DNA from: a virus
DNA length: 64,000 nt
IMG/VR virus record: IMGVR_UViG_3300035682_000004
Strand: one strand, 5' to 3'
A program made the translations under genes and the position numbers. The notes below the pieces were generated by a model that was given only the letters and a program-made list of their open reading frames with translations, ran no database searches and was not told the origin of the DNA. This document shows positions 5,596 through 8,358 of the stretch, piece after piece. Every line of letters starts with the position of its first letter. Positions within the stretch are counted from its first letter, which is position 1.

Positions 5596-5683
5596 AGTCA
5601 AGTGGTGGAATGGTTACCACGGTGGAGGTAGATGCAGCAATGTAATCCCAAAACAGAAACAGGTTCGAATCCTGTCCTGACTA
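5596..5683 (+). ncRNA. tRNA-like RNA 1 lacking a canonical anticodon arm
   Basis: Acceptor AGTCAAG/CCTGACT-A, D-arm GTGG/CCAC, T-arm ACAGG-TTCGAAT-CCTGT; the middle is a GCAA-capped hairpin. Confidence 0.7.
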
Positions 5684-5998
5684 CGAAGAGATAACAATCT
5701 TCCGATATGGCATCCATTCCGTTAATATGGAGAACTTGTTTGGCGGCTCGGAAAGACGAGCATTTATATTTAAAACATTAATCAACATGATAACATTTTT
5801 ATTAGTAGTAGCAATACTATATTTAGCCTCAATTAACAATAACACTAAACACTAAAACCGCAACAACATGTCAGACATCGGAATCGACTTTAGCATCACG
5901 TTAATACTTACTATGGTAGTATTGGTGGTTGGAACAGAATTAATTGACCGTTATAAACAACACAGACGGGTTAAATAATATTTCATATCATATCTTAT

Positions 5999-6030
5999 GG
6001 GGGTCTGGATTTCTAGATCCCCTTTCTTTT
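5999..6030 (+). terminator. Intrinsic terminator closing the early array
   Basis: gggggtctgg-attt-ctagatcccc followed by tttctttt. Confidence 0.75.
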
Positions 6031-6073
6031 GTCTTGTGTGGGTTACATCCCCTATCTGTTTGCGGTATATATA

Positions 6074-6270
6074 CGGTATATGTACGGAGGTAATGCGGTG
6101 GAAATGCGTGCGTTGTTATCCATCGATGCGTGGTATGTGGTATAGTATAAGGGGAATGTAAAAACAGCAAGTAAACGTATACTGCGCGCGGAGCGTATAT
6201 ATTGATATACTACCACTACCTACCATACCACTAACACGCATTAACACCGCTATACTCCGCCCATATCCCG
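6074..6270. repeat. Long imperfect inverted repeat in a non-coding, GC-richer block
   Basis: 6074-6110 pairs with 6235-6270 and 6130-6149 pairs with 6206-6231; G-rich left arm, C-rich right arm. Confidence 0.75.
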
Positions 6271-6408
6271 GCTATAAACGACGAACGATTGTAAAATGCA
6301 TAATGCGTAATTCCATATAGCCCTTTTGGTATAACCGGTTAAAGGCCGGGAACAACTTAGAAGTACAATTTTTCACATCGATGCAAATATATACCTATAT
6401 ACCTTAAG

Positions 6409-6440
6409 TTTGGCTCACCAGGATAAGGATATTATATTTA
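6409..6440 (+). promoter_or_regulatory. Early promoter
   Basis: TTTG-N20-TATATTTA. Confidence 0.8.
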
Positions 6441-6486
6441 AGATGTTAAAAAAGATATAAGTTAAACAATTTAAAAAATAAAGGTT

Positions 6487-7287
6487 ATGCTAGACATTAA
6501 AAACATGGATTTCATCGACAAGTCGGAAATCAAAACAAGAGCAAATTCAATTTTCACAACTACCGGTTCACCTAGTACTTCAGATAAGTACGCTCACATC
6601 TCAACCGAAAAAATTATTGACGATATGGAGTTATTAGGATGGGGTGTGGTTGATGCAAAACAAGTTAAAGCGCGTAAGAGTGTAGGATATCAAAAACACT
6701 TAGTTGTGTTTAGAAATCCAGAAATTGTAATTGATGGGGTAGATGGTGACACAGTTTTCCCTCAAATATTACTTACCAATTCACATGACGGTAAAAATGC
6801 GTTTACATTCACAGCCGGTTTATTTAGAATGATTTGTGAAAATGGTTTAGTGGTTTGTAATCAAGAATTCGAGAATCTAAAAATTAGACACTACGGATAC
6901 GATTTTGAGGAACTAGAAAAAACCATTAATACAATGGTAGAAAAGTTACCGTTAACTGTTGAATCAATGAACCGCTTTAAAACCACGGTTTTGAATTCAA
7001 ACCAAATGCTTGATTTTGCTAAACGCGCATTGAATTCCAGATTTACTGATAGTGAATTAGAGCATATCACCATCGATTTAAATGACTTATTAACTCCGTC
7101 ACGTGAGGAAGATAAGGGTAACGACATGTGGTCAGTGTTTAATACGGTTCAGGAAAAATTAACACACGGGTTATTTAATTACGCTTATGGTTCTAAAAAT
7201 CGTAAGGCACGTAAAATTAAGAACTTCAATAAGGACATGGAGTTAAACAATAAGTTGTACCAATTAGCAAACGAATTCGTCAATTAA
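6487..7287 (+). CDS. DUF932/DUF945-family protein
   Basis: ILLTNSHDG, AGLFRMICENGL, WSVFNTVQE motifs. Confidence 0.85.
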   Translation: MLDIKNMDFIDKSEIKTRANSIFTTTGSPSTSDKYAHISTEKIIDDMELLGWGVVDAKQVKARKSVGYQKHLVVFRNPEIVIDGVDGDTVFPQILLTNSHDGKNAFTFTAGLFRMICENGLVVCNQEFENLKIRHYGYDFEELEKTINTMVEKLPLTVESMNRFKTTVLNSNQMLDFAKRALNSRFTDSELEHITIDLNDLLTPSREEDKGNDMWSVFNTVQEKLTHGLFNYAYGSKNRKARKIKNFNKDMELNNKLYQLANEFVN

Positions 7288-7299
7288 TGACGAGTTCGT
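7271..7299 (+). terminator. Stem-loop over the DUF932 stop codon
   Basis: acgaattcgtca / tgacgagttcgt, 12-bp stem. Confidence 0.6.
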
Positions 7300-7349
7300 A
7301 TATATGTATATTAGTAGATAGGTATACACAAAATTAGCGCGCGAGAACT

Positions 7350-7841
7350 ATGGGAAGTTATAAAACCAATAAACAAGTATTAAAAAAATTAACTGTTGAA
7401 GAAGCACAAGCCTTTATTCCGGTTAGTATGGAAAATTCTGATGAATTAGAAAATGCTTATTTTTATACTATGGTTCCTATGGGTAATGGTTGGGATGAAA
7501 TAAATTATTATACTAACCGAAATACTCAAACTTGGAGACAAGGTAAACATAATAGTTGGATTTATATTTTATCTAATAAAACAATGCCTGGCCTTTTTAA
7601 AATTGGTCATACAACAAAACATCCTGATGAACGGGCAAGAGAAATTTCACGATCAACTGGTGTTCCAATTCCGTTTGAAGTTGAATGGGCGTTTGACTGT
7701 TTTGATTCTGATAGATTAGAAGCAGAAATTCATAGAGCATTAGATTCGTTTAGGTATTCATCAAATAAAGAATTTTTTGAAATATCTTTAAATGAAGCAA
7801 AAGAAACTATAAGGAAACTTGGCTCTGCGTATAGGAGTTAG
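7350..7841 (+). CDS. GIY-YIG-like T5orf172-domain protein
   Basis: WIYILSN..MPGLFKIGHT..P.ERA..STGVP.PF..LE.EIH..KEFF. Confidence 0.85.
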   Translation: MGSYKTNKQVLKKLTVEEAQAFIPVSMENSDELENAYFYTMVPMGNGWDEINYYTNRNTQTWRQGKHNSWIYILSNKTMPGLFKIGHTTKHPDERAREISRSTGVPIPFEVEWAFDCFDSDRLEAEIHRALDSFRYSSNKEFFEISLNEAKETIRKLGSAYRS

Positions 7842-7851
7842 TATATTTATA
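7818..7851 (+). promoter_or_regulatory. Composite early (CTTG-N20-TATATTTA) and late (ATATTTATA) promoter for the lipoprotein/tRNA cluster
   Basis: CTTG 7818-21, TATATTTA 7842-49, ATATTTATA 7843-51. Confidence 0.6.
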
Positions 7852-7892
7852 ATACGATAAATTAAACAAATAAAAACCAATAAAAAAAGAAG

Positions 7893-8045
7893 ATGAAAAA
7901 TCTAATTGCAATCGCAGCTTTAGCTGCAATCGTTTTGACTTCATGTCAATTTAACTCAACAAAAGAAACTACAACTACAGATTCAACTTCTGTTGATTCA
8001 ACAGTAGTGGTAGATTCAGTATCTGTTGATACAGTAACTAAGTAA
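7893..8045 (+). CDS. Small lipoprotein, 50 aa, with four D-(S/T)-x motifs
   Basis: MKNLIAIAALAAIVLTSC lipobox; DST, DST, DSV, DTV; read manually. Confidence 0.85.
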   Translation: MKNLIAIAALAAIVLTSCQFNSTKETTTTDSTSVDSTVVVDSVSVDTVTK

Positions 8046-8053
8046 TTAGTTAC

Positions 8054-8126
8054 GCTTTCTTAGCTCAGCTGGTAGAGCAACTGACTTGTAATCAGTAGGT
8101 CGCAAGTTCGATTCTTGCAGAAAGCT
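8054..8126 (+). tRNA. trnT: tRNA-Thr(UGU)
   Basis: Cloverleaf GCTTTCT/AGAAAGC; anticodon loop CT-TGT-AA. Confidence 0.95.
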
Positions 8127-8237
8127 CCCGGATTCATATAAATCGAGCGCAAAACCAATTGCTCCTTAGGTAGAAATATATGAATAAACAACCCGTCACG
8201 GTATGTTCAAAGAACAGGAGTGAACTAAGGAGAAAAT

Positions 8238-8358
8238 AGTCAGGTGGCGGAATAGTAGACGCAACTAGGTAAGTTAAAGGAATTATTAATTCCATAAGAC
8301 CATTAATTCCGAGATGTAAGAGAAATACATCATACAGGTTCAAATCCTGTCCTGATTA
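8238..8358 (+). ncRNA. tRNA-like RNA 2 with a multi-hairpin insert replacing the anticodon arm
   Basis: Acceptor AGTCAGG/CCTGATT-A, Leu-like D-arm GCG-GAATAGTAGA-CGC, T-arm ACAGG-TTCAAAT-CCTGT; 121 nt. Confidence 0.7.

Follow-up and report, generated by a model that had tools for sequence, protein, structure and literature searches.

Anticodon-less, tRNA-shaped RNA genes of a lake-water T4-type phage: a common leucine-tRNA-like shell around differing folded inserts

Why would a T4-type phage carry genes that have the outline of a tRNA and lack its anticodon arm? Two such elements, copy 1 and copy 2, lie in the window, i.e. the whole 64,000-nt stretch of lake-water phage DNA analyzed here (Table 1). 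An earlier note on this sequence described them as tRNA mimics sharing an acceptor stem and a T arm, and both the elements and the shared parts were confirmed. A 24-nt pattern covering the T arm and the 3' acceptor strand occurs exactly twice in the window (5659-5682 and 8334-8357), while 100 shuffles gave an expectation of 0.

Structure and setting of the two elements

Both copies contain the 7-bp acceptor, the D arm and the T arm with T-loop of the canonical tRNA (RF00005), whereas the anticodon arm of that model (a stem of 5 bp and a loop of 7 nt containing U33 and the anticodon) was found in neither. The acceptor is paired at 7/7 positions in copy 2 (one G-U) and at 6/7 in copy 1 (one A-C), and both T arms have 5 bp and a standard T loop. 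As the D arms differ in type, the shell common to the two copies consists of the acceptor and the T arm. Intact D stems and conserved elbows had also been claimed; the stems are indeed present (4 and 3 bp in copies 1 and 2, respectively), but they are of different types, and the elbow of copy 2 is slightly degenerate because AG replaces the usual GG in its D loop.

It had been expected that tRNA finders would fail on these sequences. ARAGORN left copy 2 uncalled, but forced copy 1 into a tRNA-Ser(aga), and the bases that it takes for the anticodon are paired and covary in relatives. The Rfam tRNA model matched copy 1 with 39 bits, only with 29 nt skipped where the anticodon arm belongs, and gave no match to copy 2 at E up to 1. 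The fold of copy 2 is more stable than expected (z -2.94; 0/200 shuffles equally stable); copy 1, taken alone, is not unusual in this respect (z -0.69).

One copy was correctly placed by the earlier note in the early region and the other among true tRNAs. Copy 1 begins 5 nt past the stop codon of an early ORF, inside a promoter-ORF-terminator unit, and copy 2, located between tRNA-Thr and tRNA-Met, ends 5 nt ahead of the latter. Early-promoter-like repeats gave 17 matches in the window versus 1.6 expected, and 15 promoter-like repeats lie between 700 and 11400. A T5orf172 homing-endonuclease-like gene is located at 7350-7841, and no tRNA-processing enzyme was recognized among ten larger ORFs of the window.

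Table 1. Features of the two elements and their surroundings in the window
Feature	Position	Strand	Basis or remark
Early-promoter-like repeat	5382..5410	+	upstream of ORF 5435-5590 and copy 1
181-nt stretch (copy 1 and its 3' flank)	5593..5773	+	absent from nearest relative G001
Copy 1, 88-nt anticodon-less tRNA-shaped RNA gene	5596..5683	+	relatives aligned; order: acceptor, 4-bp D arm, long irregular hairpin, T arm
Copy 1 payload, single 35-nt hairpin replacing the anticodon arm	5621..5655	+	covariation in 11 relatives; outer 3-bp helix, internal loop, UA bulge, inner helices
Copy 1 payload, GNRA tetraloop	5637-5640	+	
Copy 1 3' end, discriminator A	5683		
Copy 1 3' end, encoded C74	5684		
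Terminator-like hairpin, 3' flank of copy 1	5746-5761	+	
Early-promoter-like repeat	7819..7847	+	upstream of ORF 7893-8045 and the tRNA array with copy 2
tRNA array: Thr, copy 2, Met, Ser, Gln, Glu	8054..9160	+	all members on this strand
Copy 2, 121-nt anticodon-less tRNA-shaped RNA gene	8238..8358	+	fold stability; relatives aligned
Copy 2 D arm, leucine-tRNA-type, 3-bp	within 8238..8358	+	
Copy 2 payload	8263..8331	+	covariation in relatives
Copy 2 hairpin 1	8263-8275	+	one pair changed on both sides
Copy 2 hairpin 2	8279-8293	+	two pairs changed on both sides
Copy 2 conserved unpaired stretch	8300-8313	+	
Copy 2 hairpin 3	8313-8331	+	one pair changed on both sides

Covariation of the inserts

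The anticodon region is replaced by unrelated structures, as the earlier note had it: copy 1 has one hairpin with a GNRA cap there, and copy 2 has three short ones. The covariation check that it proposed gave double-sided changes in the relatives of both copies. Four base pairs of the copy-1 insert are changed on both sides among 11 relatives, and 93.7% of cells are paired, versus 31-42% when the partners are slid. Relatives of the copy-2 type show four double-sided changes in the inserts and one in the acceptor, where copy 2 carries a compensatory change in comparison with G001; over both types, 94-95% of cells are paired versus 30-42% with slid partners. Hairpin 2 of copy 2 is built from three unrelated stem sequences among the relatives. 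A long-range pairing in the initial fold of copy 2 was rejected, the local hairpin 2 covarying instead.

While these stems covary, the insert loops and one unpaired stretch are conserved among the relatives of the window copies. Within the copy-1 group, double-sided changes affect 0/12 shell pairs versus 4/6 unconstrained insert pairs (Fisher p = 0.005). Throughout the family, the inserts fold better than their shuffles (mean z -0.69, versus -0.15 for random genomic pieces; p = 8e-6). Sequence comparison thus indicates that the payloads of the window copies are under selection and are kept via compensatory changes. Homologues therefore do not show the uncompensated decay from tRNA-Leu by which the earlier note would have been refuted.

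Complementarity to the 64-kb window (both strands) is no higher for the two window inserts than for shuffled inserts, and the unpaired stretch of copy 2 has 6 near-matches versus 4.8 expected, with no antisense excess. Searches for Rfam 15 motifs in the inserts (about 60-140 kb of loci) found none at the gathering score or at E up to 0.5. No motif common to all inserts was found, enriched words being traceable to subfamilies only.

A family of probably mobile elements with a leucine-tRNA-like shell

Scanning with the 3' shell pattern yielded at least 118 viral contigs with a match and, from the viral loci listed, at least 169 distinct complete shell copies. Among the matches listed, 142 inserts fall into 127 unrelated types. 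The shell is intact in hundreds of copies from independent samples, but it looks more invariant than it is, as copies were sampled by an exact pattern. Acceptor or T-stem mismatches are seen in some copies (L143, L151 and L141). Matches to the 3' shell in Enterococcus phages proved to be ordinary tRNA-Gln genes. A metagenome scan anchored on the T arm only revealed the same Leu-type D arm and T arm combined with at least six other acceptor stems, fully paired and in elements that also lack an anticodon arm, which weakens the idea that the invariant acceptor is read by a sequence-specific factor.

Positions 5-26 of the shell consensus are identical (22/22) to tRNA-Leu genes of all 5426 E. coli genomes. 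The consensus has the Leu-type D arm with G18G19 and the A15-U48 pair; among the matches listed, discriminator A is present in 154/169 copies (91%), a U stands almost always directly 5' of the T stem, and U48 together with a Leu-type D loop is found in most copies. Descent of this chassis from a class II leucine tRNA is the best reading of these similarities. The ordinary tRNA-Leu genes of the same contigs differ from the shell in their acceptor and T stems. When the genomes of about 186,000 species were searched for a host tRNA with this shell, just 19 matches were obtained. They all came from MAG contigs, in many cases short ones, and no match was assigned to a true tRNA-Leu.

The two window copies depart from this consensus. 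A73 is present in both. Copy 2 has a Leu-type D stem but AG in place of GG, and its close relatives L285 and L162 have G73; copy 1 has a 4-bp non-Leu D stem and an A rather than a U ahead of the T stem. For these reasons charging of either copy is doubtful.

Across the family, ARAGORN called 35/174 copies, with 27 scattered labels; the proportion lacking a callable anticodon arm varies with the sample, at about 70-80%. A few members, such as the 76-nt copy in L022, have a near-standard cloverleaf. There is no Rfam family for these elements, and no published description of them was found.

Maturation signals were compared with those of 220 true tRNA genes of the same contigs. U is found at -1 in 80% of elements versus 70% of tRNA genes, C74 is encoded in 96% of both, and position 75 is rarely C in either. 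Among the matches listed, the strand is that of the nearest tRNA or element in 78/78 cases, and several different family members occur side by side within tRNA arrays. Retroposition from a mature RNA was considered and is unsupported; the copies carry C74 without CCA, as do true tRNA genes.

Presence of an element varies between close relatives. Copy 1 is missing from the 95%-identical phage G001, relative L187 carries another insert at the same site, and L153 contains an element identical to copy 1 at 84/88 positions in unrelated flanks. More broadly, 17/37 pairs with inserts at least 90% identical show no homology in their 2-kb flanks, although very slow evolution of the RNA, and not transfer, may account for part of the identity seen where flanks are unrelated. 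The copy-1 junction shows neither a target-site duplication nor a clear repeat. No protein gene is consistently linked to the elements, the commonest neighbour being DUF932 (14/125 loci). Some members lie 8-28 nt from ORFs, e.g. a DUF932 gene or a large terminase gene, and homing-endonuclease-like genes are found near some loci. Judged by these comparisons, the elements appear to behave as small accessory cassettes, which phages acquire, lose and pass to one another.

Possible function, alternatives and known counterparts

Based on family membership, conservation, insert covariation, the tRNA-like flanks and array context, and presence, absence and replacement at one site, we lean, with moderate confidence, towards reading both elements as stable non-decoding RNA genes with tRNA-like maturation, in which a constant tRNA-Leu-derived chassis carries a swappable functional payload. 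They would be transcribed together with the early genes and tRNAs, excised at the 5' end by host RNase P, and trimmed at the 3' end and then completed with CCA by the host tRNA-maturation enzymes. The chassis (acceptor stem, D arm, T arm and elbow) would supply the processing signals and stability. The payload, a folded insert standing in place of the anticodon and variable arms and differing among members, would most likely do the work, with a protein or RNA of the host or phage as its candidate binding partner. The earlier note had offered two roles. That of tRNA-scaffolded carriers matured by RNase P/Z agrees best with the 78/78 co-orientation and the U(-1)/C74/non-C75 signature; that of decoys for tRNA-cleaving defences, in the usual sense, finds no support, since all anticodon nucleases known to us need the anticodon loop, which the elements lack. 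Its interpretation as a whole is therefore partly supported. A decoy for acceptor-end factors may be considered.

In the latter case the shell itself would be the effector: an acceptor-end/elbow decoy, perhaps charged with leucine, that soaks up LeuRS, EF-Tu or host toxins modifying the CCA end or aminoacyl group, with loss of the anticodon arm keeping the RNA off the ribosome and the insert merely folding aside. LeuRS requires neither the anticodon nor the variable arm, and a truncated tRNA-Leu without both is still charged (PMC9976931). Most of the set needed by E. coli LeuRS is kept in the shell (A73 in most copies, U48, the Leu-type D loop), and the shell pairs of the copy-1 group lack double-sided changes. 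On the other hand, conserved insert loops and an unpaired stretch alongside covarying stems would be needless in mere filler, and the departures from leucine identity described above (G73 in relatives of copy 2, no D-loop GG in copy 2, the D arm and the A ahead of the T stem of copy 1) speak against it, so that we regard this role as unlikely. Selection on insert helices and loops would also be left unexplained if the elements were processing sites in cis, whose tRNA shape draws RNase P and 3' nucleases to early polycistronic transcripts, the cuts setting the mRNA ends and stability of the flanking genes and the excised RNA being a by-product. Such tRNA-like punctuation of mRNAs is established in mitochondria, and the position of copy 1 just past a stop codon in an early transcription unit, as well as the short distances of other members to ORFs, would suit it; members lying side by side in tRNA arrays, where true tRNAs already give cut sites, would not, and we consider the idea quite improbable.

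A comparably low probability is assigned to selection at the DNA level, in which the shell halves would be recombination or homing sites of a selfish cassette whose RNA has no role. It would account for presence, absence and replacement at the copy-1 site, for near-identical elements in unrelated flanks and for the nearby homing-endonuclease-like genes, including the T5orf172 gene, and the region consists of recurring promoter cassettes that resemble the PeSL shuffling units described for T4-type phages (PMC2839356). However, covariation, the tRNA-specific flank signature and strict co-orientation are RNA-level constraints, and the copy-1 junction has no duplication or clear repeat. That the elements are working tRNAs with unusual anticodon arms or spliced-out inserts is very unlikely, despite the few near-standard cloverleaves and the 'enigmatic introns' reported for Lak megaphage tRNAs (PMC6784885): most copies have no callable anticodon arm and the remaining labels are scattered, the supposed anticodon of copy 1 is paired within a covarying structure, ordinary tRNA-Leu genes with other stems are already present in the contigs, and the group I intron model matched neither the window elements nor those of 20 loci. 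L009 does contain a group I intron match, which lies outside the element. Finally, decaying tRNA pseudogenes or assembly artefacts could show stem mismatches such as those of a few copies and the acceptor A-C of copy 1, but hundreds of intact-shell copies from independent samples, compensatory changes in inserts and in the copy-2 acceptor relative to G001, and conserved processing flanks make this hardly credible, in agreement with the earlier judgement that simple decay does not apply.

The closest published analogue of the elements is T4 RNA C (species 1 RNA). The roles of RNA C and RNA D (species 1 and 2 RNAs; rnaC, rnaD) are unknown (PMC3014915). Like copy 2, they are non-tRNA RNA genes within a T4-type tRNA cluster and on the tRNA strand; they are small stable RNAs, and copy 2 is likened to them by location and strand. 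RNA C, too, has a large folded insert followed by a T arm and an acceptor-like stem at its end. It differs in having no D arm, and the T4 genes are single copies, with no constant shell reused with many inserts; comparison of RNA C and RNA D with the elements by sequence and model found only the universal 11-nt T-loop core in common. Class II tRNA-Leu resembles the family in the consensus D-arm stretch of E. coli and in A73 and U48, but the elements lack the anticodon arm, and neither window copy fully matches the leucine identity set. In engineered tRNA scaffolds a foreign structured RNA replaces the anticodon arm, and the cell processes and stabilizes it as a tRNA. Their architecture is the same, but they are a laboratory design, whereas the elements are natural, widespread and apparently selected.

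The over-long tRNA genes of Lak megaphages have been read as intron-bearing decoders of a defined anticodon (PMC6784885). They share with the elements conserved inserts and the inability of bacterial tRNA finders to classify them, but no shared shell with many inserts was described there (PMC6784885). YrlA (a tRNA-like Y RNA), tmRNA and the skipping-rope, DUF2693-FD and salivarius-1 tRNA mimics also imitate part of a tRNA, with other connectivity and other partners; models of YrlA and the other Rfam tRNA mimics had no hit between 4000 and 11000 (E up to 1). Position 3-70 of the elements is U-A and not the G3-U70 of tmRNA, and no tmRNA was called for them. True phage tmRNAs were called elsewhere. 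The three mimic families of a 2026 preprint are described as having other folds. PeSLs are small repeated modules of the hyperplastic early region of T4-type phages through which short segments are gained, lost and replaced (PMC2839356). Copy 1 is located in a unit of this kind. PeSLs are regulatory DNA around ORFs, whereas here the exchanged unit is an RNA gene.

Three findings are new here: that the inserts covary while the shell stays constant, that the elements share a flank signature, and that syntenic sites have the element, lack it or have another insert. Going further, we tentatively suggest a plug-in small-RNA system of aquatic and gut phages, in which one tRNA-derived chassis, ensuring processing and stability, might carry hundreds of horizontally exchanged 70-150-nt payload cassettes acting as aptamer-like effectors against host defence or physiology. 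If so, the accessory anti-defence gene pool would have its equivalent in non-coding RNA. The patchy distribution of these early-region cassettes resembles that of anti-defence genes, and the payloads are therefore candidates for RNA-based host manipulation. An unannotated relative with a different acceptor stem is present in the cultured Bacteroides phage BS-TP2 (L291:395-502), so that experiments are possible.

The family would give comparative context to the unexplained T4 RNA C and may offer natural, pre-tested designs for tRNA-scaffold RNA expression. Phage tRNA clusters are usually interpreted as codon-usage aids, and gene callers label elements of this kind as pseudo or mis-typed tRNAs, as copy 1 here was labelled tRNA-Ser. 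If many such 'odd tRNAs' are chassis-plus-payload RNAs, the non-coding RNA of phages would be far richer than annotated.

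The two elements of the window

The two anticodon-less, tRNA-shaped RNA genes of the window, copy 1 and copy 2 (see table), consist of a shell (acceptor stem, D arm and T arm) and a folded insert, which replaces the anticodon/variable region. Their acceptor stem is 7 bp long, with the 5' strand AGUCAGG (one A in copy 1), and their T stem is 5 bp long, with a standard T loop. The common acceptor and T arm, already described in the earlier note, was borne out by the analysis. The 24-nt 3' part of the shell occurs twice in the window and in none of 100 shuffles. The D stem is of 4 bp in copy 1 and of 3 bp in copy 2, as in class II tRNAs, the latter with AG instead of the usual GG in the D loop. 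Copy 1 follows an early ORF after 5 nt, while copy 2 is flanked by tRNA-Thr and tRNA-Met.

Features of the window discussed in the text
Feature	Coordinates	Length	Strand	Remarks
Early region	700-11400			
Copy 1	5596-5683	88 nt	+	Shares acceptor, T stem and discriminator A with copy 2
Copy 1 with 3' flank	5593-5773			Terminator-like hairpin in flank; missing from G001
G+C-rich stretch	6030-6300			Unusually G+C-rich, non-coding, without ORF support
DUF932 gene	6487-7287			Between copies 1 and 2
T5orf172 (GIY-YIG-like) gene	7350-7841			Between copies 1 and 2
Spacer, tRNA-Thr to copy 2	8129-8237			99% identical in G001-type contigs; other spacers vary
Copy 2	8238-8358	121 nt	+	Shares acceptor, T stem and discriminator A with copy 1
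Unpaired stretch of copy-2 insert	8300-8313	14 nt		
Spacer after tRNA-Met	8438-8561			Recurs in four contigs (L162, L115, L064, L134), 81-98% identity

ARAGORN, expected earlier to return undetermined or pseudo tRNAs, gave no call for copy 2 and forced copy 1 into a tRNA-Ser(aga). The Rfam tRNA model did not match copy 2 and scored 39 bits on copy 1 only when 29 nt were skipped at the place of the anticodon arm. The triplet chosen by ARAGORN in copy 1 comprises a bulged A and two paired bases, one of which covaries with its partner, and therefore cannot be an anticodon.

The family and its wider relatives

Scanning of viral contigs with the 3' shell pattern returned at least 118 loci and at least 169 distinct complete copies of 36-196 nt (median 103); all scans used exact patterns, by which counts are lower bounds and the invariance of the shell is overstated. 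Among the matches listed, nearly all copies open with the same acceptor strand and a leucine-tRNA-type D arm, a U almost always directly precedes the T stem, and 154 of 169 have A as discriminator. Over consensus positions 5-26 the shell agrees fully (22/22) with tRNA-Leu genes in every one of the 5426 complete E. coli genomes, and the true tRNA-Leu genes of the same phage contigs have different acceptor and T stems. In bacterial and archaeal genomes the shell pattern was found, among the matches listed, on only 19 MAG contigs, and it is therefore not a host tRNA. The D and T arms are separated by inserts of some 30-90 nt; 142 of these fell into 127 unrelated types, 117 occurring once (among the matches listed). 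Several members per contig are common, e.g. at least six in L010 (seven by a looser pattern) and four in L021.

The flanks of the elements bear the signature of true tRNA genes in the same contigs. In comparison with 220 such genes, U is present at -1 in 80% of elements (70% of tRNA genes), C at position 74 in 96% (96%) and C at position 75 in 5% (9%). Elements within 500 nt of a tRNA or of another element agree with it in strand in 78 of 78 cases. ARAGORN calls just 35 of 174 copies, spread over 27 different labels. In an additional shell search, made without regard to acceptor sequence, 167 of 181 shells with other acceptors were ordinary tRNAs, and only 39 of 133 with the family acceptor were callable. 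To judge from these sequences, the processing machinery would take the elements for tRNA genes, but the ribosome would not.

A metagenome scan anchored on the T arm alone gave at least 129 matches, 36 of which carry the family acceptor. Other matches resemble the family in their Leu-type D arm, in A73 and in the lack of an anticodon arm, but have acceptor stems of at least six other kinds, all fully paired. Hence the acceptor covaries across a wider superfamily, of which the AGUCAGG group is one large clade. Among the matches listed, no GenBank phage matches the full shell of this clade. The cultured Bacteroides phage BS-TP2 (PQ571275.1; L291:395-502) carries an unannotated superfamily member with a different acceptor stem, an anticodon-less Leu-type element flanked by DUF2303 and NinG genes, for which ARAGORN gave no call.

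Further chassis besides the Leu-type one may exist. Over-long tRNA-shaped elements left uncalled by ARAGORN, whose acceptor and T stems are unrelated, were seen in three contigs (L034:6420-6518, L126:660-764, L126:1898-2002 and L137:751-846). The orphan freshwater-1 RNA motif has a match just below threshold within a phage tRNA array (L016:4124-4186, 70.1 bits, threshold 72), and tmRNAs encoded by phages, as well as a group I intron, occur near family members (L063, L073, L009). The tRNA-Gln genes of Enterococcus phage EFDG1 (L290) and its Schiekvirus relatives, which are ordinary decoders, match the family's T arm and 3' acceptor at 24 of 25 bases, either by coincidence or by common ancestry of the 3' half.

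Selection on the inserts

The search for relatives of copy 1 used a pattern from the insert, so that they are unbiased regarding the shell. In 11 sequences the insert is one long hairpin, capped by a GNRA tetraloop and interrupted by a UA bulge, that begins directly after the D arm. Both partners have changed in four of the pairs, one appearing as U-A, G-C and A-U, and 93.7% of cells are paired, versus 31-42% with slid partners. Both-side changes affect 4 of the 6 insert pairs left unfixed by the search pattern and 0 of 12 acceptor and T-stem pairs (Fisher p = 0.005).

All three hairpins recognized earlier in copy 2 are maintained in its relatives, hairpin 2 with three unrelated stem sequences and hairpin 3 with one compensated pair; one acceptor pair is also compensated between the window and its close relative G001. 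Compensatory changes, for which the earlier note proposed a test, are therefore present in relatives of both copies. The 14-nt unpaired stretch is identical in 8 of 8 copy-2 relatives, most of which were retrieved by a pattern fixing it, and is also kept in copies retrieved independently; the hairpin-3 loop is identical in 8 of 8, the pattern having fixed 6 of its 7 bases. Over the whole family, the folds of the inserts are somewhat more stable than those of shuffled sequences (mean z -0.69; random genomic pieces, -0.15; p = 8e-6). Selection acts on the inserts.

The 14-nt unpaired stretch of copy 2 can pair with the Leu-type D arm, common to the family and true tRNA-Leu, through 7 Watson-Crick pairs (10 with G-U) in the 5' strand and loop of that arm, a post hoc complementarity that may be due to chance (roughly 0.6% for a 7-mer). 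The spacer preceding copy 2, with an unremarkable fold (z -1.2), is possibly a further small RNA or processing element. The spacer after tRNA-Met is conserved though without a stable fold (z +1.2).

Genomic mobility and possible role

G001, the nearest relative compared, is about 95% identical over the region and lacks the copy 1 segment. In a more distant relative (L187) a family member stands at the same place, directly after the orthologous ORF, with the acceptor and T arm of copy 1, a different D arm and an unrelated insert. Another contig (L153) has a copy 84/88 identical to copy 1, located 4 nt after a true tRNA-Leu, in flanks that could not be aligned to the window. Among the matches listed, 37 pairs of elements in different contigs have inserts with an identity of at least 90%, and 17 of these pairs lack homology within 2 kb on either side. 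Slow RNA evolution could account for part of this flank result, but not for the differences between the window, G001 and L187 at a single site.

Small ORFs make up the first 11 kb of the window, and each is preceded by a recurrent promoter-like motif (TTGGCY, 17 nt, TATATT) with 17 matches in the window versus 1.6 expected. Fifteen of these lie in the early region on the + strand (e.g. 5144, 5382, 6410, 7819), ahead of small ORFs or the tRNA array, which makes this a PeSL-like hyperplastic early region; T4-type phages shuffle modules within such an architecture (PMC2839356). Homologues of the DUF932 and T5orf172 genes are among the commonest family neighbours (14/125 and 8/125 loci, respectively), sometimes within 10 nt. 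The halves of the G+C-rich stretch seemed partly reverse-complementary by eye, and a repeat finder reported nothing.

Taken together, the data show RNA genes that are under selection, carry tRNA-type maturation signals, lack a decoding arm and have constraints specific to the insert. Decay, true decoding or splicing, a role solely as a cis-acting processing site and a cassette acting at the DNA level alone each fit these data less well. E. coli LeuRS disregards the anticodon and variable arms, and much of what it needs is retained in the shell (PMC9976931); therefore charging with leucine, or a role as an acceptor-end decoy, is a live rival, even though the leucine identity set is incomplete in both copies of the window and in some of their close relatives (G73 variants, AG for GG, 4-bp D stem). 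The decoy role proposed in the earlier note is unlikely in the case of anticodon nucleases, as the RNAs lack the loop that these enzymes target.

No Rfam 15 family matches any insert of the examined elements, and full-text literature searches brought up no account of one tRNA shell being reused with many inserts. The closest parallels in the literature are the stable RNAs C and D of the T4 tRNA cluster, whose role is not known (PMC3014915) and which share only the T-loop core sequence with the family, the Lak megaphage tRNAs with ‘enigmatic introns’ (PMC6784885) and the laboratory tRNA-scaffold method. We class the family among the tRNA-like stable RNAs of phages, a kind already known. On balance, we lean with modest confidence towards the view that the elements would be cut out and CCA-finished like tRNAs and would persist as stable RNAs, the insert being the working part and the shell serving biogenesis.
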